Positions 1,353 through 58,402 of a stretch of 64,000 nt of DNA are shown one piece after another; position 1 is the stretch's first letter; each line of letters starts with the position of its first letter. Under the pieces are notes generated by a model, which was given only the letters and a program-made list of their open reading frames with translations, was not told the origin of the DNA and searched no databases. A program made the translations under genes and the position numbers. Origin of the DNA: Spirochaetales bacterium (GTDB taxonomy: Bacteria > Spirochaetota > Spirochaetia > SZUA-6 > DRHE01); NCBI GenBank assembly GCA_030615505.1, contig JAUWZD010000002.1:2436-66435 (forward strand). Direction: 5' to 3'.

Positions 1353-4300
1353 AAATATCGAAACAGGGCCTGGCATCGCTGCAATGTATTCATGAGGGCG
1401 CCAATTCCCTCATTTACCGTCAGGACACAAGCGAGTACGGGAAACCAGTCATTATTAAACTCCTGAAACACGACTATCCTACATCTGAGCAGATTGTTCT
1501 GTTCAGCAATGAGTACGAATTAACGAAAGACCTCAGCATCCCGGGAATTCGCAAAGCATACGACACAGGCAGGATTGATGGCACACCTGCCCTCGTGTTG
1601 GACTATGTTGAAGGTGAGACCATCCGGGAAGCATTTGTTAAGCAGCGCAAGGGCCTGGCAGAGATGCTCACGGTAACAATCTCAATCGCGCAGGCATTGG
1701 GGGAAATCCATTACCACAACATCATTCACAAAGACATCAATAGCCGTAACATTCTGGTCAATCTCGAACAGCAGACAGCCACTATTATTGATTTCGGCAT
1801 GGCGTCGCAGGTCGATCTCAAGACCCGCTATATAGGGGATTTTGAAGTGTTGGGAGGGACTCTTCACTATATGTCGCCCGAGCAGACCGGCAGAATGAAT
1901 CGGTTTATCGATTATCGCACCGACCTCTATTCTCTGGGCGTTGTACTGTACGAGATGCTCACAGGGAAATTACCGTTTGACACAACTGATGTGTCGGAGC
2001 TCGTCCATTGCCACATTGCCAGACGTCCGACCCCGCTGTGCGAGATCAACTCCGACATCCCCCAGGCGATCTCGGACATTGCGATGAAACTGCTGGCAAA
2101 GAATGCTGAAGACCGCTATCAGTCTGCGTATGGCTTAAAGGCAGATTTAGAGAACTGCCTGAATCAATTAAGAAAAACAGGCACGATCGAAGGCTTTGAA
2201 TTAGCAAAAGAGGATTTTTCAGGGAGATTTCAGATTCCTCAGAAACTGTATGGCAGAGAACAGGAAATTCAAACCCTGATACAGGCATTTGAATGGGTGA
2301 ATAGAGGCACAAGTGAAATTCTTTTGGTATCGGGCTATCCAGGTGTGGGGAAATCTTCAATAGTCATGGAAATTCAAAAAATTGTCACGGAAAAGCAGGG
2401 ATGTTTCATCTCGGGGAAGCACGATCAATATCAGCAGAATACCCCCTATTATGGCTTGATTCAGGCGTTTACCGATCTTGTCAACATGATGCTGACGGAA
2501 AGTGACGAGCGATTTGCCCAATGGAAAGCAAAGATCGTGAAGGCGGTCGGGGAAAACGGACAGTTGTTGATTGAGGTGATTCCAAGTTTAGAATTGATTA
2601 TCGGCAGGCAGCCGCCTGTTCAGGAACTGGACCCCACAAAGGCACAACATCGCTTTCATTATGTGTTTCAAAACTTTGTTAAAGCCATTTCTCAAAAAGA
2701 ACATCCGCTGGTGTTATTTATCGATAATTTACAGTGGGCGGATGTTGCCTCTTTAGATTTCTTGAAATTGTTGATGAGCGGCGTAGAAAATCAGTATTTA
2801 TTGTTCATAGGCGCATATCGGGATAATGAGGTCGGGAAATCCCATCCGTTAATGATGACGGTCGAAGATATGAAAAAGAAAAAGGCTATTATCAACACGA
2901 TTCATTTGGCAAATCTTTCTCATGACACACTGAACCTTTTGATCTCGGACACTTTACAATGCGAACCGTCTTATGCGCAATCATTATCGGAACTGGTATA
3001 TGAAAAAACAGGTGGGAATACATTTTTTGCTATTGAATTTTTGAAATCGTTATATGAGGAAGGCTTGCTGACCTTTCATTTTGATATGCATAGATGGAAA
3101 TGGGATATTACTCAAATTCGGGAAAAGAATATTCCAGACGATGTGGCCGTGTTAATGATCCATAAAATCGAAAAATTACCTGAGGACACTCGAAAAATAC
3201 TGACACTGGCCGCATGTATAGGGCACAGGTTTGATCTGAAAATGCTGGCCGCCATTGCGGAACAATCGCTAAAAGATACATTTGACAATCTATGGAAGGC
3301 CGTTGAAGAGGGATTGGTACTGCCTTTGGATGATAATTATAAAATAATGGCGGCGCTTCCGAATGGACAACAATCGGGAGTAAAAAGCCATTTCGAATTT
3401 TTGCATAACAGAACCCGACAAACCTTCTATGCGCTGATTCGCAAAAAACAGAGAAAAACGATTTCTCTTACGATTGGGAGATTATGCTTACAGGATACGG
3501 AAGAGACTGATTTGGAAGAAAACATATTTGATATTGTGAATCAGTTCAATGAGGGGTTTCAATACATCAAAGATGAACAGGAGAAACTCAAGTTAGCAGA
3601 ATTAAATCTCATAGCCGGACGCAAAGCGAAGAACGCAACGGCATATAAGACGGCTATCTGGTATTTAAGTATGGGGATAGGACTGCTGCCGCCAAGAGAT
3701 AAATGGGAGGCTCAATATGACCTGGCGCTCAGCCTGTATATGGAAGCCGTGGAAGCCGAATACTTAATGACTACCTTTGAACGGGCGGAACTACTCTCCA
3801 AAGAAGTTCTCCAACATGCCAGAGGTCTCCTGGAGAAAATCAAAATTTATGATCTCCAGATCTTGTTTTACACAGCCCAAAACAAAAATGACAAAGCCAT
3901 AGAGTCTGCGCTGGAAGCCCTGGAGATGCTGGACGTCTCTCTGCCCACCGAACCGGAGGAGATAAATGTTTATGCTGAAAAGTTGCAGGAAGAATTGTCT
4001 GAAAAAGTCGACCGGATCGATGATTTAGCCGACTTGCCGGTAATGAAGGAGCCGTATCAATTGGCAGCGATGCGGATCTTGATGAATATGGCTGCTCCGG
4101 CTCATCAGGCGAATCCCGGATTGTTGCCGGCGATTATCTTCAAAATGGTTCTCATGTCCGTCAAATATGGGAATTCGCCCCTGGCAGCTTTTGCCTATGG
4201 TTGGTATGCCGCATTTTTATGCGGAGCATACGGTGACATCGAGAAGGGGCATCAGTTTGGACAACTGTCGGTGAAAGTGCTGGAGCAGTTTAACGCCACA

Positions 4301-7300
4301 GAACTCAAAGCTAAAGTTATCTTTCTGTTTAACGTTTCTGTAAGACACTGGAAAGAACATGCCGGCGAAACGATAAAACCTTTGCAGAAAGTACATCAAA
4401 GTGGGGTTGAAACAGGAGATTTGGAGTATGGGTATTATGGGGCTGCCCACTATTGCGGCTATTTGTTTTGTATCGGAGAATCCCTGGAACTTATTCGTCA
4501 GAAGCAGGCGGAATATCTGGAGACAACAAAAAGGTTTCGACTGGAGTTTCATAGTTATTTCATCAAGATATGGGCACAAATGGTTTTGAATCTCCTGGGC
4601 AGGTCCGCGGACCCGTGCCGGTTGACAGGGGAACTGCTTGATGAATCGGAAATGCTGCCGGTTTGGATAGAGCAAAACAATCTTACCCTGGTTTTTTGCG
4701 CTTCTTGCTGCCGGACAATCTTGCTGTACTTGTTTAAAAACTATGCTGAGGCGATCGAATCGGCCCGTTTGGGGGAAGAATACGAAAAAGGCGGAGAAGG
4801 ATTTATTTATCTTCCTGAGCACAAGTTTTACTATGCCCTGGCGCTTTTGGCTCACTATCCCGAGGTCGAACCCGGGACGAAGAAACAATATCTGGATATA
4901 GTGGCCTCGATTCAAGAAAAAATGAAACAATGGGCATGCCATGCCCCCATGAATTTTCAGCATAAATACGACCTGATCGAGGCAGAGAGAGGCCGGATAT
5001 CAGGTGAAACCCTCAAAGCAATGGAACATTACGGCCGGGCTATAAAAGGCGCCCGGGAACATGAATATATTCAGGAAGAGGCACTGGCGTATGAACGCGA
5101 AGCAGAGTTTTATCTTGCTTTGGGCAGAGAGGAATTTGCCCAGCTCTGCATAACCAAAGCCCTGGATGGCTACCGACTTTGGGGCGCAACACGCAAAGTT
5201 GACGATTTGGAAGCACAGTACAGGCATCTAATGCTGACAACTCTCACCCCGACCATGACTATACCAGAAAGTAAAGGAATGAGTTCCACTTCCACATCCG
5301 GAGTATCCGCTTCATTAGATACGGCAGCCATTATAAAAGCATCCCACATGCTCTCCCAGGAAATCCATTTGGAACGACTGCTTGACAAAATGATACACAT
5401 CGTCATTGAAAGTGCAGGCGCGGAAAAAGGCATTTTGATTGAGAACAGGAACTACAGGCTGATAATACAGGCAAAAGGCAAAGTCGGGCAGGAACAGGTC
5501 GAAACGATGCAGGAAATCCCCATCGAACAGAGCGGAGAAATTCCCCTCTCAGTTGTAAATTACGTAGCACGAACGCAAACGCCTGTCGTTTTGAATGATG
5601 CCTGTCATGACAACTCCTACGCCGCCGACAGATACATCCTAATCCATCAACCCAAATCGCTGCTGTGTCTGCCGATTGTCCATCAGGGAAAACTCTCAGC
5701 GCTGTTGTATTTGGAGAACAATCTGACAACAGACGCCTTTACTCCGGATCGTTTGGAATTATTGAGGACACTGTCCTCACAGGCAGCAATTTCAATAGTT
5801 AATGCCGACCTTTATGTCAGGTTGGAGGAAAAAATCAGGGCGCACAGGAAGGCTGAAAAGGAGTTAAAAAAGCACCGGGATCGCCTTGAAGAACTGGTGA
5901 AAGCGCGTACAAGAAATCTTGAAGCTGCCAACAAAGAACTCAATAAGGCCAAAGAAGAGGCCGAAACCGCCACCCAGGCAAAGAGCGAATTCCTGGCCAG
6001 CATGAGCCATGAGCTGCGTACCCCTCTCAATGCCATTATCGGCTTTTCGGAAATCCTCGGGGAAAAAACTTTTGGCGAACTGAATGAGAAACAGGCAAAA
6101 TACGTCAACCATGTCCTCACAAGCGGCCGCCACCTGCTCCAACTGATCAGCGACATCCTGGATCTTTCCAAGGTGGAAGCGGGCAAGATGGAACTTGAAC
6201 CATCCAGGGTGAACATAAAGGGTCTTCTTGAAAACAGTCTCGTCATGATCAAGGAAAAGGCTATGAAGCATAGCCTCAGGCTCGACCTGCACATCTCTGA
6301 GGAGCTAATGGATCTCGAGATATCGGTAGATGAGCGTAAACTCAAGCAGATTATGTTCAACCTGCTTTCCAATGCTGCCAAGTTCACCCCTGACGGCGGA
6401 GAAATCCACATCACTGCCCAATCAACAATCAACAATCATCAATCATCAATCCAGATCAGCGTAGCCGATACCGGCATCGGCATCAAACCCGAAGATCAGG
6501 AACGAATCTTTGGCGAGTTCGAGCAGGCGGACTCAACCTATGCCCGCGAGCAGGAAGGGACCGGCCTGGGCCTGGCGCTGACCCGCAAACTGGTCGAGCT
6601 GCACGGCGGTGGCATTTGGGTGGAAAGTAAAGGCGAGGGCAAAGGCAGCACCTTCACCTTTGTGATTCCTATTGAGGCTTTGGAGCGGGAGGGCGAGGTC
6701 TCCATCGAGCCGGAAGAACCTTTACCTTCCCGACCAGACGTGGACGATTCCCGGCCCCTGGTCCTGGTGGTGGAAGACGACCGCCAGGCGAGTGAGCTGA
6801 TCAGTCTTTATCTATCCGAAGCAGGCTATAGGGTGGCCCACGCCTTTGATGGGGAGCAGGCGATTAAAATAGCGCGGGAACTGAGACCTTATGCGATCAC
6901 CCTGGACATTATTCTGCCGAAGAAAGACGGCTGGGAGGTGCTGGCAGAGCTGAAATCCCTGCCTGAGGTGAAAGATATCCCTGTAGTCATCGTGTCAACA
7001 GTAGAAAAGCGACCGTTTGGCCTCAATTTGGGGGCCGTTGAATACTTTGTTAAGCCAGTGAACAAGGAGCAGTTAATCGAGGCCGTGCGCAAGATCGGGG
7101 CCGTGACTGTGGTTGTGGTTGACGACGAGCCCCAGACCGTTGAACTGTTGACCGACATGCTCCAGGCCGAGGGATTCACTGTGCTTCAGGCATATGGTGG
7201 TCAACAGGGCGTAGATCTTGCCATTGAGAAGCACCCCGACCTCATTATTGTTGACCTGATGATGCCTGAGGTGAGCGGGTTCGACGTGGTGGAGCAATTG

Positions 7301-7498: not shown

Positions 7499-7882
7499 AT
7501 GGCAAGCGAAAAGATACTGATCGTCGAGGACAATCCCATGAACATGGAACTGGCAACGGACCTGCTGGAAGCGGCAGGTTACGTCGTCATCCAGGCCGGG
7601 ACGGCTAAGGAGTGTATAGAGCTGGCGAGAGCCGAATTCCCCGACCTCATTCTCATGGACATCGGCCTGCCGGGCATGGACGGACTGGAGGCAACCGGGG
7701 TTCTGAAACAAGACCCTGCGACAAAAGATATTCCCGTCATTGCCCTGACGGCTCACGTGATGAAGGGAGATGAAGAAAGAGCGCTGGCGGCCGGCTGTGC
7801 CGGCTACATCACGAAGCCCATCGACACGAGTGAATTTCCCAAGGCGGTGGCTCGGTTCATTGAGTCTGCCGGGGTTCCATAA
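7499..7882 (+). CDS. Single-domain response regulator (CheY-like receiver).
   Basis: ILIVEDNPMNMEL, DLILMDIGLPGMDGLEA and ITKPID motifs. Confidence 0.85.
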   Translation: MASEKILIVEDNPMNMELATDLLEAAGYVVIQAGTAKECIELARAEFPDLILMDIGLPGMDGLEATGVLKQDPATKDIPVIALTAHVMKGDEERALAAGCAGYITKPIDTSEFPKAVARFIESAGVP

Positions 7883-7898
7883 AAGGAGGCACGTATTA

Positions 7899-10310
7899 AT
7901 GAAAATCCTTATTGTAGATGACATAAAAGCGAACCTCGAGCTGCTGGAAGCCAGGCTGGAGGGGAGCGGCTACGAAGTTGCATCTGCCAGGAACGGGGCA
8001 GAGGCACTGGAGAGCTTAAAAAGGGACTCCATTGACATGATCATCTCTGACATCCTCATGCCCAAGATGGACGGCTACCAGCTGTGCAGGGAGTGTAAGA
8101 GAGACGACACGCTAAGAAATATACCTTTCGTATTCTACACCGCTAATTACACAAACAAGAAGGACGAGGAGTTTGCTTTGAGCCTGGGTGCTGAGAGATT
8201 TATTGTGAAGCCAATGGAACATAAGCGCTTTATGGAGACAATCGAGGATACATTAAAGAATCACAAAAAAGGCCTCATGCCCTCTCCTGAAATGCCGGTA
8301 GAAAAAGAAGAGGCTGACTTCTTGAAGGAGCATAGCGAGCGGCTGATCAAGAAACTTGATCAGAAGGTATTCCAACTGGAGGAGACCGAAAGGACACTTC
8401 AGAATCGTACGTATGATCTTAAAGAGCGGGTCAAGGAGCTTGATTGCCTCTATAGTATTTCTAAACTTGCTGAGGAGGAGGGCATTTCGTTAGAGAAGAT
8501 AACTCAAGGGGTTGTTAATCTCATTCCCCCAGCATGGCAGTATCCGGAGATCACTTGTGCACGAGCAATTTTAGAGGGCCAAGAATTCAGAACGGGAAAT
8601 TTCAAAGAAACCGTCTGGAAGCAGGCAAGCGACATCAAAGTTCATGGCAAGTGGATCGGAACTGTGGAGGTCTATTACCTAGAAGAAAAGCCAGAAATAG
8701 ATGAGGGGCCTTTTCTGAAAGAGGAAAAAGCACTGATCATCGACATTGCCGAGCGATTGGGGAGAATTATCGAGCGAAAGCGGGCGGAGGAGTTGTTGAG
8801 GGAAAGCGAGGAAAAGTTCAGGGAGTTGTTCGATGGCAGCACCGACGCCATTTTTATCGCCAACCCCGAGACGAGGAAGTTGGTTGACTGCAACAAACAG
8901 GCCCAAAAGATCACCGGGTACTCAAGAGAAGAAATCCTTTCTATGAGAGCAGACCAGCTCCATCCCAAAGACAAGGTCAAAAAGACGATGGAAGGCTTCA
9001 AGAAACATGTCGCTGGCGAGTTTTTATTTGTCGAATCAGAAGTCCTGACCAAGGACAAGAAAAGAGTCCCGGTCAGCATCAGTTACTCTCTACTCGAAAT
9101 CGCCAGCGAGAAATATCTCCAGTGCATTTTCAGGGACATTACCGAGAGTAAGCAGGCAGAGCAAAAAATACAGGAATACTCTCAAAACTTGGAACGTATG
9201 GTGGAAGAGAGAACCAAAGAACTTAACCGAGCCCTTTATGACACAGAAGCGGCACGGGACAGGATAGATGGTATCCTCAAGTCTATTGGTGACGGCCTGA
9301 TCGTCACCGATATGTATAACAGGATTATTTTGATGAACCTTGCTGCTGAAGATCTGCTGCGTGTACGCTTTAGTGAGGCGATTGATCGATCCATCGATTT
9401 TACCATCAAGGATAAAACCCTTAGGGATCGAATCAAAACAACCCTGGATAAAAAGAAGGGAGGATATGAGTTTGATTTTGAACTGCCGGGAGAGGATACC
9501 AAGCATCCCCGTATTATGCGTGCCAGGACATCGGTGATTGATGATAAGACCGGTAAGCATACCGGTAGTATAACCATTATCCATGATGTGTCCTACGAGC
9601 GCGAGGTGGACAGAATGAAGACAGAGTTCCTCTCAACAGTAGCCCATGAATTAAGAACCCCTCTCACCTCCATCCAGGGTTTCTCAGAGATTCTCTTAAC
9701 GCGGGATGGTATCAAAGAGGAAGAGAAAGAAGAGTGTCTCTCCTACATCAACAAACAATCGGTAAATCTGGCCACTCTTATCAACGATCTTTTGGATATC
9801 TCCCGTATTGAATCCGGTAAGGTATTTACTCTGAACAAGACTCCCTGCAATATTGCCGATATCATCAAATACACAATTCCCTATTTTCAGACACTGTCTC
9901 CAAAACACAGCTTTGAGGTGGTCTTGCCAGAAGAATCCGTGGAATTGATGGTGGATAAGGAAAAGATGGGGCAGGTGTTAGAGAACCTTCTGAGCAATGC
10001 GGTAAAGTATTCTCCCGAAGGCGGCTCTATTTCCGTGTCGGCAAAAAGGATTGAGGAATTGGAAGGAGACGAAAAACAATCCGCAATCGAGATCAGCGTA
10101 GCTGATACGGGCATGGGGATGAGCCCTGAGCAGGTGGAGAAGATATTTGATAAATTCTACCGTGCAGATGCCTCCAACACTGCCATTCCAGGTACTGGTC
10201 TGGGCATGAACATTGTCCAGTGCATTGTGGAGACCCATGGGGGCAAGGTTTGGGTGGGGAGTGAGCTGGGGAAAGGAACAACGGTTAAATTTACAATACC
10301 AACAAAATGA
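7899..10310 (+). CDS. Hybrid sensor histidine kinase (REC, coiled coil, GAF/PAS-like, PAS, HisKA, HATPase_c).
   Basis: Start chosen at ATG 7899, which has an AAAGGAGG SD, rather than the upstream 7770 start that overlaps the preceding gene. REC (MIISDILMPKMDGYQ), PAS (FDGSTDAIFIANPETRKLVDCN), H-box VAHELRTPLTSIQGFSEILL, and HATPase (DTGMGMSPEQ, GTGLGMNIV). Confidence 0.85.
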   Translation: MKILIVDDIKANLELLEARLEGSGYEVASARNGAEALESLKRDSIDMIISDILMPKMDGYQLCRECKRDDTLRNIPFVFYTANYTNKKDEEFALSLGAERFIVKPMEHKRFMETIEDTLKNHKKGLMPSPEMPVEKEEADFLKEHSERLIKKLDQKVFQLEETERTLQNRTYDLKERVKELDCLYSISKLAEEEGISLEKITQGVVNLIPPAWQYPEITCARAILEGQEFRTGNFKETVWKQASDIKVHGKWIGTVEVYYLEEKPEIDEGPFLKEEKALIIDIAERLGRIIERKRAEELLRESEEKFRELFDGSTDAIFIANPETRKLVDCNKQAQKITGYSREEILSMRADQLHPKDKVKKTMEGFKKHVAGEFLFVESEVLTKDKKRVPVSISYSLLEIASEKYLQCIFRDITESKQAEQKIQEYSQNLERMVEERTKELNRALYDTEAARDRIDGILKSIGDGLIVTDMYNRIILMNLAAEDLLRVRFSEAIDRSIDFTIKDKTLRDRIKTTLDKKKGGYEFDFELPGEDTKHPRIMRARTSVIDDKTGKHTGSITIIHDVSYEREVDRMKTEFLSTVAHELRTPLTSIQGFSEILLTRDGIKEEEKEECLSYINKQSVNLATLINDLLDISRIESGKVFTLNKTPCNIADIIKYTIPYFQTLSPKHSFEVVLPEESVELMVDKEKMGQVLENLLSNAVKYSPEGGSISVSAKRIEELEGDEKQSAIEISVADTGMGMSPEQVEKIFDKFYRADASNTAIPGTGLGMNIVQCIVETHGGKVWVGSELGKGTTVKFTIPTK

Positions 10311-10386
10311 TTTTGGATTGCAGGTTATGGATCACATCGCAAATCTAATATCTGAGAGATAGAAATGAAAAGGAGGAATCGTAAGG

Positions 10387-10752
10387 ATGAAAAAGATTCT
10401 CGTAGTAGATGACCAGCCAGAGGTTAGGAAGCTGGTGGAGATGACCCTCAAGGTTGAGGATTACCAGGTTCTCCAGGCTAAAAGCGGGGAGGAAGCCGTT
10501 GAGATTGGTAAGGCGGAAAAACCTGACCTGATCATCATGGACATCATGATGCCAGGTGATATACATGGACTTGAGGCCACCCGTATTCTAAAAGATGACC
10601 CGGAAACCAAAGAATGCACTATCATTATGTTGACAGCCAAAGGCCAGGAGGCTGACAAGGAAGAGGGGTTTAAAGCAGGAGCAGATGACTATTTTACTAA
10701 ACCCTTCAGCCCTTTGGAATTGATAAGGAAGGTGGAAGAGGTTCTGGAGTAG
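10387..10752 (+). CDS. Single-domain response regulator (CheY-like receiver).
   Basis: KILVVDDQPEVRKL, DLIIMDIMMPGDIHGLEA and FTKPFSPLEL motifs. Confidence 0.85.
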   Translation: MKKILVVDDQPEVRKLVEMTLKVEDYQVLQAKSGEEAVEIGKAEKPDLIIMDIMMPGDIHGLEATRILKDDPETKECTIIMLTAKGQEADKEEGFKAGADDYFTKPFSPLELIRKVEEVLE

Positions 10753-10793
10753 TTGAAACTCGAAACTTGATACTGGAAATTGCGATGTATACT

Positions 10794-10820
10794 ATCGAGC
10801 ATCGAGCATCAAGCATCCAA
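10794..10820 (+). repeat. Heptanucleotide tandem repeat (ATCGAGC x2, ATCAAGC, ATCCAA) in the leader of the HD-GYP gene.
   Basis: Read directly. It lies between the REC stop (10752) and the best start of the HD-GYP gene (ATG 10839, SD GGGGAG). Confidence 0.6.
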
Positions 10821-10838
10821 TATCCAGGGGAGATTTTC

Positions 10839-11639
10839 ATGGAAATAAATGACTTTCCGAAAGATTCTTCTAATTCGAATCAATTAGAAAAATATGCAAA
10901 GGATCTCGCCGAAGTTTGCAAATCTGAAAAGGAAAAAAGAAAAGAGCTTGAAGCTGCAAATCAGCAACTTGTGAAATATGCCGATGACCTGAACAAGACC
11001 ATCTTAGAACTAAAGGGCAGCCAACAAGAACTACAGAAAGCCTACCTTGACACTATTCACCGTCTTGTGCTTGCGGCTGAATATAAAGATGAAGACACGG
11101 GCGACCATATCATGCGCATGAGTCGTTACAGTGCCTTGATTGCTGAAAAACTTGGTCTGTCGGCCAACGAGGTTCAAAATATACTCTATGCTGCCTCCAT
11201 GCATGATGTGGGAAAAATCGGCATACCGGATAGCATTTTAATGAAGCCGGGCAAATTGACAGACGAAGAATTCGGAACCATGAAAACCCATAGCGTAATA
11301 GGGGCAAATATCCTGGCGTATTCAAAGGCTGAGATCCTCAAACTTGCAGAGCAGATAGCCATTTCCCATCATGAAAAATGGAATGGTAAGGGATATCCGC
11401 AGGGCCTTGGCGGTGATAATATTCCTCTCGCAGTCAGGATTGTTGGCCTGGCAGATGTCTTTGACGCTCTTACTTCCAAACGTCCTTACAAAGATCCTTT
11501 TCCTGTAGAAGTTGCGATCGATATTATTAAGAAAGAGCGTGGTGAACATTTTGACCCAGATGTGGTAGATGTTTTTTTGGAAAATATAGATGAAATCGTA
11601 AAAATCAAAGAAGAAGTGGATTCAACAGAAGTTGTGTAA
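10839..11639 (+). CDS. HD-GYP domain phosphodiesterase (c-di-GMP hydrolase family).
   Basis: HDVGKIGIPDSIL and HHEKWNGKGYPQGL motifs. An N-terminal coiled coil. The track start at 10767 is a TTG; ATG 10839 has a good SD. Confidence 0.8.
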   Translation: MEINDFPKDSSNSNQLEKYAKDLAEVCKSEKEKRKELEAANQQLVKYADDLNKTILELKGSQQELQKAYLDTIHRLVLAAEYKDEDTGDHIMRMSRYSALIAEKLGLSANEVQNILYAASMHDVGKIGIPDSILMKPGKLTDEEFGTMKTHSVIGANILAYSKAEILKLAEQIAISHHEKWNGKGYPQGLGGDNIPLAVRIVGLADVFDALTSKRPYKDPFPVEVAIDIIKKERGEHFDPDVVDVFLENIDEIVKIKEEVDSTEVV

Positions 11640-12211
11640 ATGAATAATAAATCCGGGAAAAGAGAATTTAATCGTTTTCCAATTGGACTAGGGGACGTCC
11701 ATTTGTAATTAAATAACTGTAAGACGAGAGTAAGGGATTGGGGCGTAATGTTAAAAATAGAGGTCGGTGATCTACAATTTTGTCGGATGGGGTCAGATCC
11801 GCTGTATAGAAAATGATCCAGACATACCTGAGGCAGTATTGATGATTGTCGATTGAAAAACAAAGAAGGTTTTTGTTTTAAGGAAATATGGTACTTTGTG
11901 GGATGGTTTTAAACAGACTATGGAAAACGCCTATAAATATCTCTTCGGTGCAAGAAGCGGATCAGTTCGAATGTGTCACCTGACAACTTGAGGCCGAGCC
12001 GATAATCTCCGATCCTTAAGCGGTAGTAGCTGGGAAAACCTGCAATCTTTTTGACTCCTTTTAGTCCTGCCGGGGAGTCTAACCTTTTCGATCCGGCAAG
12101 GGAAATAAGCCGATCCCCAGCCGTAAAAAACCGGGGATCGGCTCGCGCTGCAATACTTAAAAGAGCTTGTACACGGCGTCGTTGGACATGTCGAAAAGCC
12201 CGGTATCATCT

Positions 12212-13112: not shown

Positions 13113-13783
13113 TATACCCATATACCAAGAGGGCAAAATGTCCTGCAAACGGTATTCAAAGAACATTTTGATGATTTCAGAGAAGTGTATGATGAGAAAT
13201 ATTCAAAAGCATACGGCAAATATCGTATTGATAGAATTAAAGAAGTTGTAGAAGAATTCATAAAATTCGGAGACTATAAAGAAGGTCTTGCTAGAATAAA
13301 ATCCACAGGATGAAACCATGTACCAACCCTGACTGCGGTCATCCACAGGATGCCCGCTGGGTGCCCGCAGGGTGAAACCAAAACCATGATTATTTTGTTC
13401 CCCTATCCTGCAAGGGATTCTATCTATGTCCGTCTTGTCATCAGAAAAGAACCCTCTTGTTTGCAGAACAGATCACACAAGAAGCTCTCTTAAGGCTTCC
13501 GCACAGACAGTGGGTTTTTTGTATTCCCAAGTGCCTTCGAGTGTTTTTCAAGCATGACAGAATGCTGTTCTCCGATATATCCAGGTTGATCTTTCAGATG
13601 CTCCAATCCTACTATGATAAGGTTTTAGCTAATTCTATCCAAACCGGCGGCACCCTGGACGGATCATCCGGATGGGCACATGACATCGAGCAACCCCGCA
13701 CGTACTACGAGAACTCATGCGTTTACTTGAAGTCCTTGTGTCGGGCAGTTCCCTGTGTAAAGCTCATTCAAATGATTGTTTGA
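13113..13783 (+). pseudogene. IS91-family (rolling-circle, HUH Y2) transposase N-terminal fragment. It has no start codon, is interrupted by two repeat-element insertions, and is truncated after the zinc-binding/N-terminal domain.
   Basis: Translation gives FKEHFDDFREVYDEKYSKAYGKYRIDRIKEVVEEFIKFGDYKEGLARIK, then [insert] CTNPDCGH [insert] DYFVPLSCKGFYLCPSCHQKRTLLFAEQITQEALLRLPHRQWVFCIPKCLRVFF. This matches the conserved IS91-family N-terminus (GF-RvrC-CG-SCK-CPSC...HRHWVFTlP). Confidence 0.7.
13302..13386 (+). repeat. Repeat-element copy A. A 17-bp short form (13302–13318) and a 45-bp long form (13342–13386) flank 23 bp of transposase coding sequence.
   Basis: TCCACAGGATGAAACCA, and TCCACAGGATG CCCGCTGGGTG CCCGCAGGGTG AAACCAAAACCA. 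Deleting both restores the transposase reading frame. Confidence 0.7.
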
Positions 13784-13945: not shown

Positions 13946-15213
13946 ATGAGGAAGGTTCCACAGGAGAAATGGCATACGCTTTTGAAAGATCATCACGAGG
14001 GCTATATCTCATGGGAGCAGTTTGAAATAAACCGAAAACGCATCGGGTCGAACGGGCGGCCAGGAAAGGGCCCAGGAGCACCACGGGAGGGGGATGGACT
14101 TCTGCAAGGGATCATTCTCTGCGGACGCTGTGGAAGAAGGATGAGAATCGCTTACGGAAAAGGCTCCAGGCCGACCCATTATAGCTGCGCACAAGCGCGC
14201 AAGCAAACAGGTGCTCCGGTGTGTCAGAGTTTTGGAGCACGCCGGCTGGAGCAAGCAGTGGAAGGACTCTTGTTGGATTGCCTGTCACCGCTGGGCGTAG
14301 AGGCTATGCTGGAAGCGGCGAAGGTGTATACCGAGGATAACGAGGTGGAACGGACCCGATGGAAACAAAACATCGAGAGAGCACACTACGAGATGAATCT
14401 CGCTCGCCGGCAGTATGATGCGGTGGATCCAGAGAATCGGCTTGCCGGAAGGTCCCGACCTTGGGGTTGCTCGGGAGCTGGAAAGACGGTATGAAAAGGC
14501 ACTTAGAGCCATAGAAGAGATTGAGTCGGAAGCGTATTGCCCGATGTCTGATCGAGAACGTAGTGGTAACCTCACCGCGAGAAGGCACAATGCTTATAGC
14601 CCAGGTGCACTGGAAAGGCGGCGAGGTTACAAAGCTCGATGTACTCAAGGGCAAGAGTGGCATTCACCGTTATGTGTCGCCTCTTGAACTCGTTGAGTTA
14701 ATACGTACGCTGGCAACTGAGTTTTCAGACATCCAGATCGCACGCATTTTGCACCGCAAGAGACTGAAGACACCAAAGGGTCGGCCTTTCATGGCTTACC
14801 ATGTAGCCAACGTGCGAAATAAATATAACATTCCTAAGGGTCTACGGGTGCCACTACGAGGGGAAGACGTCTATACGGCAGAAAAAGCAGCAGAACTGTT
14901 GGGTGCCTGTCGAAGTACAATTATCCGGTGGTTAGAAGTTGGCTTGCTACGCGGTTCACAATTGACATCTGGAGCTCCGTGGCGTATCGTAGTAACCAAA
15001 GAGGACATCGAAAGGCTAAAACCGAATGAGGTTGGTGAAGGTAGGTATCCGCTTAAGGGAGCGGCTTCGGCCTTAGGGGTGAGCCAGCAGACCGTTTTGC
15101 AAAAGGTTAAGTCGGGAGAGCTTGAAGCCATTCGAGTGCGAACAGGCAGGCGTGTAGGCTGGAGAATTCGTTTACCCATAAGCATTTACGACAATCAACC
15201 AGCCTTGTTTTAA
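13946..15213 (+). pseudogene. Large serine recombinase, C-terminal two-thirds, split over three frames by frameshifts. The catalytic resolvase domain is absent.
   Basis: Recombinase domain and zinc beta-ribbon (LLQGIILCGRCGRRMRIAY...YSC). A coiled coil in frame 0 (ELERRYEKALRAIEEIE). A C-terminal segment in frame 1 with two excisionase-type HTH motifs. Frames 2, 0 and 1 meet at about 14415–14687. Confidence 0.65.
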
Positions 15214-21054: not shown

Positions 21055-23171
21055 TATGGGAAAAAATTGAAACAGACCCCGATGAAGTAAGGGAGATCGC
21101 CAGACAGAACGATCTTGACCTGATCTCCTCATCCATACTGATTAGAAGGAATTTAACGGACAGCCGTTCCCTACGTTTCCTGCTCGAGGATGATCTGCTT
21201 CTCCTTCACAATCCCTTTTTGTTCCGGGATATGGAGAAGGCGGTAAACCGTGTAAACCGCGCCATAGATCGGAAAGAGAAGATTATGGTTTTCGGCGACA
21301 GGGATGTAGACGGCATTACATCAACCGTTTTACTGGTCCAGCTCATAAGGGATTTAAGCGGCAGGGTTGAGTGGAAGCTTCCCGGGGAGAATGAAGACTA
21401 TGGGCTCACTCGCCAGGTAATTGAGGATTCGTCTGCCTCTGCCTGCAGCCTGATAATTACAGTAGATTGTGGAATCTCAAATATCGATGAAATAGCCTTA
21501 GCCAGGGAAAGAGGAATAGATACAGTGGTCATAGATCATCATATTCCACAGGATACGCTTCCTGAGGCCGCGGCAATAATAAATCCGAAACAGGCGGGAA
21601 GTACCTACCCGTTCAGAGATCTTGCAGGATGCGCTGTGGCTGCGAAATTTGCCTGGGCTGTGGTTTTCTCAAGCACGCCAATGTACGGCAAACCTGTGTG
21701 GCTTTTAAATATTAAACCGGACAACGAAACCTATTCTGTAGAAGCTGTAAAACTTGTGAACCTGGTGGAAAGAGAGCGCCTGGTTTTAAGTCTGCTTCCC
21801 GAACTTTCAAGCTCGCAGAAAAAACGGCTTTTACCCCTGATGTCGGCAGATGATATTGTAGTTTATGACTCAGCCGGCATGAGGAAACTTATAGACAGAA
21901 TAGGATTAGGTGCTGAGAACCTGAAGCTTACGGATATTCGTCCAATGGTAGGAAAATTCTTTCCGGATTTAGAGGGTAAGAGCCTGCTTAAAATCAAGAG
22001 CCTGATAAGGCCGGCCCAATATGGAAGCCGGGGCTCCGGTGAGCTTGATATGCTGATCAGCCTCCATAATACTGTTATACTGAAACAGGAAAATGCTCTC
22101 CTATCAAAGCAGAATTATTTTATGGATCTGGCGGCCTTAGGTACCCTGGCCGATTTGATGCCCTTAGCTGATGAGAATAGAATCATCGTGAAGAGGGGAT
22201 TGGAAGTTTTAAATCAGATGGGACGCCACGGCCTGCGCGAACTCATTATAAAACAGAGGCTTTACGGAAAGAGAATTACTACCACGGATGTTACCTGGCA
22301 GATTACACCGGTGCTTAATGCCGCCGGAAGGATGGGTGAGCCGGAAAAAGCAGCCTCTCTACTGCTCTCAAATGATCCACATGAGGTTGAAGAACTGGTG
22401 GATTATATTCTCGATCTGAATAGAAAACGAAAATATCTGGGAGATAATGTCTGGAAAAGATGTTTTACCCGGTTCAAAGAGAGCCTCGATAAGGCTGATG
22501 GGAAGTTTATCCTGGTCTATGATCATTCAATTCCAAGAGGAATAACCGGGATCCTGGCCTCCAGATTAATTAATTATTTCAAAGTTCCGGCCATAGCCAT
22601 TGCCGTAAGCCATGATAAAGCTGTCGGTTCTCTTCGCAGTCCGTACTCGCTAGAAGGATTTCTAGATCATTATGCCGATCTTTTTCTAAATTACGGCGGT
22701 CATGATTGCGCGGCAGGTTTCAGCCTGGCCAGTTCCATTATTCCCGAATTTGAATCGAGATTTTACAGGATGATAAGGGAACTTAATCCTCCCGATCATA
22801 GTGGAGAAAAATTGATCATCGATGCTGAGGTGCCTCCCGACTACCTCAATCCAAATTTAATCAGTGTTGTAGAGCTTTTTGAGCCTTACGGAGAAGGCAG
22901 CCCTGTCCTAATTTTCTTGACCCGGCAAGTTAGGATTGAAGCACTGGATATCATCGGTAAAAGCGGTATGTCCCACCTGAAGCTGCTTATCGGAGCCGGG
23001 AAATACAGATGGCCGGCAATTTACTGGAACGCGGCGGAAAGAGCCGGAAAGGATTTTACGGTTCACGACACTGTAGATATCGCATACCGACTGGCAAGAA
23101 ACTATTTTCAGAATACAGAAACCCTTCAGCTTACTATTTTAGATCTGAAACCATCCACAGGATGCCCATAG
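21051..23171 (+). CDS. recJ: Single-stranded-DNA-specific exonuclease RecJ. Its last 6 codons are supplied by repeat element B.
   Basis: DHH motifs (FGDRDVDGITS, VVIDHH) and DHHA1 (GGHDCAAGF). Confidence 0.9.
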   Translation: MIWEKIETDPDEVREIARQNDLDLISSSILIRRNLTDSRSLRFLLEDDLLLLHNPFLFRDMEKAVNRVNRAIDRKEKIMVFGDRDVDGITSTVLLVQLIRDLSGRVEWKLPGENEDYGLTRQVIEDSSASACSLIITVDCGISNIDEIALARERGIDTVVIDHHIPQDTLPEAAAIINPKQAGSTYPFRDLAGCAVAAKFAWAVVFSSTPMYGKPVWLLNIKPDNETYSVEAVKLVNLVERERLVLSLLPELSSSQKKRLLPLMSADDIVVYDSAGMRKLIDRIGLGAENLKLTDIRPMVGKFFPDLEGKSLLKIKSLIRPAQYGSRGSGELDMLISLHNTVILKQENALLSKQNYFMDLAALGTLADLMPLADENRIIVKRGLEVLNQMGRHGLRELIIKQRLYGKRITTTDVTWQITPVLNAAGRMGEPEKAASLLLSNDPHEVEELVDYILDLNRKRKYLGDNVWKRCFTRFKESLDKADGKFILVYDHSIPRGITGILASRLINYFKVPAIAIAVSHDKAVGSLRSPYSLEGFLDHYADLFLNYGGHDCAAGFSLASSIIPEFESRFYRMIRELNPPDHSGEKLIIDAEVPPDYLNPNLISVVELFEPYGEGSPVLIFLTRQVRIEALDIIGKSGMSHLKLLIGAGKYRWPAIYWNAAERAGKDFTVHDTVDIAYRLARNYFQNTETLQLTILDLKPSTGCP

Positions 23172-23221
23172 GGTGCCCACAGGGTGAAACCAAAACCAAA
23201 ACCATCCACAGGATGAAACCA
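23154..23221 (+). repeat. Repeat-element copy B: a 51-bp long form plus a 17-bp short form in tandem, inserted between recJ and the M23 peptidase gene.
   Basis: TCCACAGGATG CCCATAGGGTG CCCACAGGGTG AAACCAAAACCAAAACCA, then TCCACAGGATGAAACCA, then TG. Confidence 0.75.
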
Positions 23222-24300
23222 TGAGATCATCCCTGATTCTTCTACTGCTGTATCTTTCCTTCCATCTTCCGGCAGAGATCCTCTGCCTCAGTCCGGAAGA
23301 GGATTCATACTGTTACGTTTCACCGGAAGCGGATTACCTTTGGGCTGAAGGAAAACTGATGCCCAGGCAGGGGTTGTTCTCCTATTTTTCGGGGCAAGGT
23401 TCACACTTGCTTCCTGAAGTTATTTATTCTGAAGAATTTGACCGGGGGAATATACTCTGCGGATTTATTATTATCGATTGTGTTATTGAACATTTTTCCG
23501 TAGAGCTTGAGGATCAGGATGGAAATCCTATAGCAGAAGCTGGAGGATTTAAAATAGGTAATAGACAGGGATTTGAAGTTTGGTGCTTTCTATTGGGTAT
23601 CCCGAGTGATCTGACAGGGGGAATTTACAGGCTTACAATAATGGGAGGGCAGGGGAATCGTCATTTCCGTTACCTGGGAGCAGTAAAGGTAGGAGCTAAA
23701 CAGTACGCTTTTGAGCGGATTTTACTGGATAAGGGTCTTGAGGATCTGGTGTCAAAACCTGATGTGCGAAAAGTGAAAGAGGCCAGAAATTTAAGGGAAC
23801 TTCTTTTATCCTTTCGTTCTGATGCCTTCTATCATACCGGATCCTTTATACTGCCGGTTTCAGGAGCCAGGATAAGCTCCAATTTTGCTGCCAGGCGTAA
23901 ATATCAGTTTATGGGAGGAGGATTCTCTTCTGTTCATAATGGAATTGATCTGGCAGCGCCGCAGGGAACACCGGTTATGGCCTGCGGCTCCGGTAAGGTT
24001 GTTTTTGCAGGCTACAGGATCATGAGCGGTAATACCGTGGTGCTTGAACATCTACCCGGAGTATATACCCTGTACTTTCATCTACTGGATCTGAAGGTCA
24101 GGGACGGCGATATGGTGAAAAGCGGCGGGATCTTAGGAAGTATCGGCATGACCGGCCTGGCAACAGGACCCCATCTCCACTGGGAGTTGCGAGTTTCCGG
24201 TGTTGCAGTGGACCCCGGAGCCGTCCTTCAGTCCGGCCTTATTGACAAAACTGCCGTTTCAGGTATCATTAAAGAGATTATTTTAGAAGGAAGGAGGTGA
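23221..24300 (+). CDS. M23 family metallopeptidase (LytM domain), secreted.
   Basis: N-terminal signal peptide. [14 protein letters not shown] (HxxxD) and HLHWE (HxH) motifs. Confidence 0.85.
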
Positions 24301-26810: not shown

Positions 26811-26880
26811 AGAAGCCTCCTTATTAAATATAAATAATATATTAGATCATAATAGAATTGAGGTCATTGTCAAGTCAATC

Positions 26881-26940
26881 TACAGGGTGCCCACAGGATG
26901 CCCGCAGGGTGCCCACAGGGTGAAACCAAAACCAAAACCA
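26881..26940 (+). repeat. Repeat-element copy C (60 bp) in the divergent intergenic region upstream of modA.
   Basis: TACAGGGTG CCCACAGGATG CCCGCAGGGTG CCCACAGGGTG AAACCAAAACCAAAACCA, then TGG. Confidence 0.75.
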
Positions 26941-27003
26941 TGGAAAGTTTAAAAGAATTGCAACTCAGTTGCATAAATTTATTTTAACAGATATACTCAA
27001 ATT

Positions 27004-58368: not shown

Positions 58369-58402
58369 GGGGGGAATTTAGGGGGAATTTAGGGGGAATA
58401 TT
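58369..58402. repeat. Three direct repeats of GGGGGAATTTA (11-bp period) about 190 bp upstream of the late operon.
   Basis: Read directly: GGGGGGAATTTAGGGGGAATTTAGGGGGAATATTT. Confidence 0.5.

Follow-up and report, generated by a model that had tools for sequence, protein, structure and literature searches.

A run of five heptamers in ATC phase, at positions 10794-10828 (forward strand) of the 64,000-nucleotide stretch of Spirochaetales bacterium DNA analyzed here (contig JAUWZD010000002.1, assembly GCA_030615505.1; hereafter the window), lies between a gene for a single-domain receiver and a gene for an HD-GYP phosphodiesterase. Rather than standing free as a microsatellite, it makes up the right arm of an imperfect palindrome. 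Comparison with related loci suggests, with a probability of about 0.7, that this palindrome is a decaying, intervening-sequence-like cassette, devoid of an open reading frame (ORF), which was inserted at a once-tight (9-10 nt) operon junction. In cassettes of this type, two inverted arrays of short units, heptamers in the present case, would form a long stem carrying a small PF05635 gene in its loop. PF05635 is S23p, the 23S rRNA intervening-sequence protein, an Avd-like four-helix bundle. On the evidence of the related loci, the window element appears to be the remnant of an S23p cassette of the intervening-sequence kind that resides in an mRNA junction instead of rRNA.

The receiver/HD-GYP spacer is a heptamer palindrome

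The units of the tract read ATCGAGC ATCGAGC ATCAAGC ATCCAAT ATCCAGG, two of them identical and the remaining three variants; with the register shifted one base to the left they become TATCGAG CATCGAG CATCAAG CATCCAA TATCCAG. A sequence-only reading of this DNA had described a heptamer tract here, and both the sequence and a period-7 call by Tandem Repeats Finder (10794-10817; 3.4 copies, 94% matches, score 41) bear this out. The pattern ATC-N4-ATC-N4-ATC occurs seven times in the window, at three loci that all fall within the signalling island, as compared to an average of 1.15 in shuffled sequences, none of which (0/100) reached seven. In a self-similarity scan of the window, more than 21/28 matches were scored at lags 7 and 11 only, the period-7 loci being the receiver/HD-GYP spacer and a tract in a kinase gene (see below). 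The tract is thus well above chance.

The 3' end of the tract runs into the Shine-Dalgarno (SD) sequence GGGGAG (10827-10832, forward strand), which is separated by six nucleotides, ATTTTC, from the ATG of the HD-GYP gene at 10839. The stretch from SD to ATG (10827-10841) is conserved across relatives, whether the insertion is present or absent. The location between the receiver stop (TAG, 10750-10752) and the SD and ATG of the HD-GYP gene, also proposed in the sequence-only reading, is confirmed by the sequence and by the N-termini of homologues: about 20 HD-GYP homologues begin with M[DEG][IKT]N[ND]FPK, and a 266-amino acid (aa) database gene call (P0001) is 100% identical to the product initiating at ATG 10839. 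The homologue N-termini rule out an in-frame extension of the HD-GYP protein through the tract, from either TTG 10767 or ATG 10785. Since the start at 10839 is backed by these N-termini and by the identical gene call, the tract is considered a non-coding leader or intercistronic sequence.

Heptamer periodicity extends through the entire 86-nt spacer from the receiver stop to the SD, which reads TTGAAAC TCGAAAC TTGATAC TGGAAAT TGCGATG TATACT followed by the five ATC units. The first four of these units constitute the left arm (10753-10780, forward strand), which directly follows the receiver stop and is reported by Tandem Repeats Finder as a period-14 row at 10753-10779; alternatively, the left arm can be read as CTNGAWA units, approximately the reverse complement of NATCNAG units in the right half. 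The centre (10781-10793, forward strand; TGCGATGTATACT) is a putative loop remnant and marks the site occupied by a PF05635 ORF in relatives. The right arm (10794-10828, forward strand) is the tract itself. The two arms are able to form a duplex in the window (-17.7 kcal/mol, z -2.6, p ~0.015), and this arm-against-arm test is more informative than folds of the whole spacer, which are weakly better than those of shuffled sequences. In the predicted RNA fold, UUGA, CUCGA and CUUGAUA pair with UAUCGAG, UCGAG and UCAA; in an alternative fold, CUGGAAAUUGCGAUG is paired with CAUCCAAUAUCCAG. A combination of the two hairpins into an H-type pseudoknot is sterically implausible and they were treated as alternative folds. 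A search of Rfam at E values up to 1 gave no match over positions 10200-11000.

The junction in relatives: empty, ORF-bearing and ORF-less states

The organism has its relatives among uncultured Desulfobacterales. Related loci (designated by L numbers) were retrieved in genome and metagenome scans, none of them closer than ~88% nucleotide identity. Their receiver/HD-GYP junctions fall into five classes, of 9-10, 65, 70, 86 and 455 nt. The shortest class, found in L003 (9 nt), L082/83 and L176-181, consists of TAG or TGA, GAGGACTTTC or GGAAATTTTC, and ATG. Because this class spans several lineages, we infer that the empty 9-10-nt junction is the ancestral state. The 65-nt class is an unrelated hairpin that keeps its length across 11 contigs obtained from different samples; the 70-nt junction, in L084, is a shorter heptamer palindrome with three right-arm units; the 86-nt junction is that of the window, and the 455-nt junction that of L182. 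At its own receiver/HD-GYP boundary, L099 has CAG in place of the receiver stop (~2990-3000), before GAGGACTTTC-ATG, and the receiver ORF reads past the junction.

L182 (GCA_030615565.1) is the closest of the relatives retrieved, its receiver and HD-GYP genes being 88.5% and 88.6% identical, respectively, to those of the window at the nucleotide level. Within its junction lies a gene of 115 aa that matches PF05635, "23S rRNA-intervening sequence protein" (S23p), with an E value of 2e-22. The gene is bracketed by a left arm (4370-4404) reading CTTGAAA CTTGAAA CTGGAAA CTTGAAA TTTGGAT and by a right arm reading TATTTAG TTTCGAG TTTCAAG TTTCCAG TATCTAG, the latter followed by TAGGAGGATTTTC-ATG. The left arms of the window and L182 are 82% identical, and the right arms match unit for unit, the same five units occurring in the same order; neither alignment has internal gaps. 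The two loci differ at the centre, where the window has GAAATTGCGAT|GTATACTATCGAG and L182 has GAAATTTGGAT[AAACCT-ATG..ORF..TAA-CGGGTGC]ATATAGTCTATTTAG. Removing the segment from AAACCT-ATG to TAA-CGGGTGC from L182 leaves GAAATTTGGAT|ATATAGTC, which approximates the window's GAAATTGCGAT|GTATACTA. We infer from this comparison that the window centre has probably undergone a deletion of the ORF.

Other relatives occupy the same junction in different ways. L091 carries a PF05635 gene that differs from that of L182 (E 1e-31) and lies between inverted arrays of 8-mers, so that a PF05635 ORF is present at this junction in both L182 and L091; in L084, such an ORF is found at the neighbouring junction. 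L081 has kept the last 14 codons of an L182-type gene together with the right arm, and further elements are nested within. In this locus the junction (2270-4000) has grown to 1.7 kb and contains left-arm units, a DUF2283/DUF4258 gene pair and the remnant of a PF05635 C-terminus; its right arm hosts a nested, GC-rich small element with GTTTCAAG on either side. Arrays of the same unit type were found in L007, L081, L088, L091 and L182, and no second near-identical copy of the element is present in the window. In Desulfobacterales-related loci overall, the association between PF05635 and arrays involves four intact genes and two remnants.

Pairing between the arms is strong around intact ORFs: -33.2 kcal/mol (z -8.0) in L182, where the full fold includes a terminal stem of ~26 bp, and -29.5 kcal/mol (z -5.8) in L084. 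It amounts to -20.2 kcal/mol (z -3.3) in the ORF-less copy of L084. Pairing strength therefore tracks the ORF, being weaker or non-significant in ORF-less copies compared with ORF-bearing ones, while terminal inverted repeats capable of forming a stem are found in the window as well as in L182.

Several observations weigh against the interpretation of the spacer as a decayed S23p cassette. The stem of the window copy is weak, with a whole-spacer fold at z -1.7 to -1.8 relative to shuffles, and the two predicted hairpins are mutually exclusive; in the spacer on the other side of the receiver gene (see below), the arms pair no better than shuffles (z -0.8). Three adjacent right-arm units of the window show TT-to-CA changes relative to L182 that are not compensated in the left arm and give rise to 2x2 internal loops; the lack of compensation speaks against pairing being under selection, and hence against conservation of an RNase III site in the window copy. 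No homologue of PF05635 (tblastn, E up to 1) or of PF13366 is found in the 64-kb window, the spacer being without an ORF, and the link to cassettes is provided by relatives at 80-88% identity rather than by conspecific strains. The change may also have run in the opposite direction: instead of an ORF lost in the window, L182 may have gained one within a pre-existing palindrome. Co-transcription and processing of the spacer are themselves putative. Finally, a possible 3-nt target duplication of the stop codon (TAG...TAG in L182, L084 and L081; CAG in the window) is suggestive at most.

Within the cassette interpretation, the palindrome would have inserted between the receiver stop and the HD-GYP SD, leaving SD and ATG intact. 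Since no terminator was predicted in a scan of positions 10200-11000, the spacer is presumably co-transcribed as part of the receiver/HD-GYP operon mRNA, in which it would fold into a modest, imperfect stem-loop ending just 5' of a free SD. Such a stem-loop might act, at most, as a weak RNase III or other processing site that uncouples the two cistrons, or might simply be neutral selfish DNA; functional neutrality is conceivable because the decay of the stem is uncompensated. The two identical units and the shared TT-to-CA changes could result from slippage or gene conversion within the array, as opposed to a regulatory switch, and the TT-to-CA pattern looks like array homogenisation combined with relaxed selection on the stem. 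A receiver/HD-GYP pair ancestrally 9-10 nt apart would thus have been split by a selfish hairpin, with possible consequences for the stoichiometry of this c-di-GMP signalling pair or for the way its mRNA is processed.

A sister palindrome and an in-frame array in the kinase gene

The spacer between the kinase and receiver genes (10311-10386, forward strand) reads TTTTGGA TTGCAGG TTATGGA TCAC / ATCGCAA ATCTAAT ATCTGAG and then runs into an SD. It is a second, weaker heptamer palindrome, with ~3 units per arm, and is an element of the same kind as the 86-nt spacer. In relatives, this junction has ~4 units per arm (91 nt, the same length in seven contigs from different samples) or is occupied by a 102-nt variant. 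In L084, it contains an intact PF05635 gene, situated between TTTTGAT/TTTGGAT and AAAATCC/AAAATCG arrays.

The tract in the kinase gene (6419-6451, forward strand) is an in-frame heptamer array composed of CAATCAA x2, CAATCAT x2 and CAATCCAG. It encodes 12 residues in the beta-hairpin loop of the kinase HATPase_c domain. Of 92 homologues, 67 have a loop of 8 aa, the canonical length; the loop of the window kinase measures 12 aa and that of 17 others 17-41 aa, so that roughly one homologue in four has a loop extended to 12-41 aa. The long-loop homologues that were examined carry translated repeat arrays, such as ...LISKFGVRISEL...SAICNLQSA, and in-frame arrays or palindromes can be recognized at the DNA level within the loop in L139 (909-1006 and 4897-4991) and L082 (45-139). 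One kinase loop insert, RKGAKAQRE, is the translated form of CGCAAAGG-type 8-mer arrays. Arrays of the latter kind also occur in inverted orientation around genes of another family, PF13366 (PDDEXK_3), which lie between inverted short tandem arrays in L082 (3700-4200), L101 (1080-1600) and L039 (1780-2300).

The resemblance between the kinase tract and the HD-GYP tract had been judged unlikely to be coincidental, and this judgement held: both belong to one lineage-enriched, ATC-phased family, of which 10311-10386, lying between them, is a third and weaker member. When periods 4 to 15 were counted in 1.28 Mb of fetched related loci, 33 tracts with period 7 were found, compared with 1-14 at any other period, and ATC recurred at period 7 on 73 occasions in 31 loci, against 9.3 expected. 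The units vary by site (ATCGAGC, ATCGCAA, CAATCAA, AATCCAA, TTTCNAG) and the ATC core alone recurs.

Relation to known elements

The closest parallel is offered by the S23p intervening sequences in 23S rRNA of Leptospira and Coxiella burnetii (PMC4990558). In Coxiella, an S23p ORF lies in the loop between terminal inverted repeats that are cut by RNase III, and two or three tandem GACAGAT heptamers are present depending on the strain (PMC4990558). The elements described here resemble them in having a four-helix-bundle ORF in the loop of an inverted-repeat stem, tandem heptamers at the termini, an ORF that decays while the RNA stem persists, and a sporadic distribution suggestive of mobility. 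They differ in their host sites, a junction in a protein operon and a loop in a kinase gene and not helix 25 or 45 of 23S rRNA, and in that the arms consist entirely of heptamer arrays. The window copy, in addition, has no PF05635 ORF inside. RNase III cuts the stem of the 23S elements and might conceivably cut that of the window element.

Intergenic heptamer arrays of other bacteria provide a second point of comparison. In cyanobacteria they were reportedly described by Mazel et al. in 1990 under the name of STRR. To our knowledge, 35 years of observations in that group, joined later by others in Xanthomonas and Beggiatoaceae, have assigned them neither an origin nor a function. Published examples include the Nostoc GGGGAYT repeats, which form intergenic arrays, and 70-75 convergent (inverted) pairs of GGGAATC arrays in Xanthomonas, whose function is unknown (PMC4692102); in Beggiatoaceae, TAACTGA repeats are found 5' of start codons, and strains of Cyanothece differ by 7-nt indels (PMC4679880). 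The window arrays share with these families the arrangement of tandem 7-mers between co-oriented genes, often near a start codon, as well as the absence of an established function and the 7-nt length steps that those families show between related strains. Recurring intergenic tandem heptamers are found here too, at three sites in the window and in 33 tracts in relatives, but no unit sequence is shared: those families use one genome-wide unit, often in many copies, whereas the present units are site-specific and few per array. The two heptamer-array papers (PMC4679880, PMC4692102) do not mention a link to PF05635.

Short palindromic repeats that lie both between genes and, in frame, in permissive protein loops are also a feature of Rickettsia palindromic elements and other miniature inverted-repeat elements, and the HATPase_c inserts are comparable in this respect. 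The Rickettsia elements, said to insert in-frame into genes (Ogata et al. in 2000), are, however, 100-150-nt copies of a single consensus, lacking internal tandem periodicity and an ORF-bearing form. An integron attC site was considered and rejected from a reading of the sequence (no dedicated attC model was run): the element has no GTTRRRY at its right end, and both of its arms consist of tandem repeats. No integrase was seen beside the island in the domain annotation of the window ORFs.

Alternative explanations

The sequence-only reading had proposed that changes in unit number would alter promoter or leader spacing, that is, that the tract is a contingency locus in which slipped-strand mispairing switches or tunes HD-GYP expression. 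The array is indeed tandem with two identical units, heptamer switches are known, and Cyanothece strains differ by 7-nt array indels (PMC4679880). In H. influenzae hmw1A and hmw2A, an (ATCTTTC)n repeat in the gene leader forms one arm of a 5'-UTR (untranslated region) hairpin that is processed by RNase III (PMC12721329), and the present tract likewise is an array of heptamers starting with ATC that forms one arm of a hairpin in a leader. The differences are nonetheless considerable. Contingency loci have many identical tandem units, typically at least six, and natural hmw has at least 11 perfect repeats (PMC12721329), as against five degenerate units, two identical and three variant, in the window. 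Changes in repeat number have been measured for hmw; here, a comparison with relatives rather than with strains of one species detected no polymorphism: L182 has the same five units, and analogous arrays are invariant in length in seven (91-nt) and 11 (65-nt) contigs from different samples. The right arm of the hmw hairpin is a G-rich non-repeat, while both arms are arrays here. The length of the tract sets neither a reading frame nor the spacing between -35 and -10 hexamers, and the SD-to-ATG interval lies outside it; the sole promoter-like match is upstream, at chance level, and the tract does not separate its hexamers. In the kinase tract, slippage by a single unit would frameshift a 2045-aa protein. 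Steps of ~7 nt do separate distant lineages (three units in L084 versus five; 76, 91 and 102 nt for the sister spacer), and slippage therefore shapes the arrays over evolutionary time. A switch operating through unit number is nevertheless very improbable, and annotation of the tract as a contingency locus is not warranted. The promoter-like match just referred to (TTGATA-17-TACTAT; 10767-10795, forward strand) lies within the left arm and centre, upstream of the tract except for its last two bases. It agrees at 9/12 positions with the sigma-70 consensus and has the right place and orientation to drive a separate HD-GYP transcript from ~10802, with the tract as 5' UTR, at a point where the insertion parts genes otherwise 10 nt apart. 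A promoter scan, however, finds one such site where 1.1 are expected in shuffles, neither L084 nor L182 conserves the hexamers, and these are simply heptamer units (TTGATAC). An internal promoter is thus improbable, though somewhat less so than the unit-number switch; it would in any event be compatible with a cassette and would not constitute an alternative origin.

A better case, although still an unlikely one, can be made for an array to which an RNA-binding protein (for instance a cold-shock protein, S1 or CsrA) would bind, controlling translation from directly 5' of the SD. At no fewer than 10 distinct junctions in relatives, sense-strand ATC-phased arrays end 14-38 nt before an SD-bearing start codon, with the ATC phase conserved across sites. 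MacGregor (2015) argued the same for the Beggiatoaceae TAACTGA repeats, and CspB binds one heptamer per protein (PMC4679880); heptamer repeats near recF and recO affect expression in Nostoc (bioRxiv 10.1101/2022.06.06.494920). Against this, the units differ widely between sites (ATCGAGC, AATCCAA, CAATCAA, TTTCNAG, and 8-mers elsewhere), many orthologous junctions function without any array, and no candidate protein was identified. A selfish palindrome explains more simply the inverted pairs, the enclosed ORFs and the in-frame copies in kinase genes. The CsrA version, suggested by GGA motifs in the left arms, was rejected for the inconsistency of array orientation and unit sequence between sites. 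At the other extreme, low-complexity sequence that arose by chance and shares no origin with the kinase tract would be in keeping with a repeat so short and degenerate, whose Tandem Repeats Finder score falls below the usual threshold of 50. This explanation is scarcely credible given the ATC-N4 count, the outlying position of lag 7 both in the window and in the 1.28 Mb of relatives, and the alignment of the arms to L182.

Array-flanked PF05635 genes on plasmids

The generality of the association was sampled by a tblastn search of plasmids with two PF05635 proteins. The matches were cyanobacterial and Bacteroidota genes annotated "four helix bundle / S23 ribosomal protein", the one exception being a partial match in Azospirillum that carries no annotation. 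Eleven genes, on plasmids of Nostoc, Anabaena, Calothrix, Aulosira, Picosynechococcus, Pseudanabaena and Riemerella, were inspected. Nine are flanked by 7-8-mer arrays and 10 adjoin at least one co-oriented gene. The arrays are present on both sides and inverted in 7/11, as in Nostoc edaphicum, where GGGAACA x3 faces TGTTCCC x5; in L196 the array is confined to the downstream side, and in L191 arrays on both sides are in direct orientation. Flanking arrays of 7-8-mers thus appear to be general around PF05635 genes. Three of the 11 genes lie inside CRISPR-Cas operons: these array-flanked four-helix-bundle genes, in L188, L191 and L194 (Anabaena 90, Pseudanabaena galeata and Picosynechococcus plasmids), occupy positions between cas6 and cas4 and between cas10 and cmr3.

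More tentatively, array-bracketed PF05635 genes might constitute widespread, largely undescribed cassettes that target operon stop/SD junctions, rRNA helices and permissive protein loops. Much of the unexplained heptamer-array content of Cyanobacteria, Xanthomonas, Bacteroidota, Beggiatoaceae and Desulfobacterales would in that case derive from ORF-less remnants of such cassettes, the three tracts of the window would be such remnants, and the encoded protein would act on the arrays. We know of no role for S23p proteins outside diversity-generating retroelements. The co-travel of arrays and S23p genes, the empty, full and ORF-less states of the junction, the correlation between pairing and ORF and the in-frame arrays in kinase loops make both puzzles testable. 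One can ask whether the cassettes move, whether the arrays are bound by S23p and whether operon mRNAs are cleaved there by RNase III. In the literature that we covered, which is incomplete and leaves novelty unproven, no paper linking PF05635 genes to flanking arrays outside rRNA was found.

Neighbouring genes and other repeats

The gene 5' to the tract (10387-10752, forward strand) encodes a single-domain receiver (Pfam Response_reg, E 2.7e-31). The 3' neighbour (10839-11639, forward strand) encodes the HD-GYP phosphodiesterase (HD_5, PF13487, E 4e-35), with the motif HHEKWNGKGYP. Directly 3' of the HD-GYP stop is a 22-codon remnant of a PilZ gene (11640-11708; MNNKSGKREFNRFPI...); relatives have a full PilZ gene after HD-GYP, followed in L185 and L197 by a gene with a guanylate-cyclase domain. 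A DNA search of the 1.4-kb region against plasmids returned distant matches to HD-domain coding sequence and nothing else. Further upstream, a separate single receiver-domain ORF (7499-7882; MASEKILIVEDNP...) lies 12 nt 3' of the stop of the large kinase gene. As it overlaps the annotated start of ORF 7770-10310, the true start of this REC-PAS-kinase is probably located further downstream. Downstream of the island, recombinase debris at 13946-15213, comprising an HTH_17 protein and a fragment of Zn_ribbon_recom, points to an integrated element, now degraded, beside the signalling genes.

The window also contains a second intergenic repeat family, in three copies (13336-13385, 23148-23222 and 26873-26942), made up of 11-mer arrays (CACAGGGTGCC / CACAGGATGCC, 2.6-3.7 copies), (AAACCA)3, and ATCCACAGGATGAAACC leading into an ATG, such as the one that starts at 23221. 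Short perfect tandem repeats are present at 553-578 (GGGGAATCACCAT x2) and 58370-58399 (GGGGGAATTTA x2.7).

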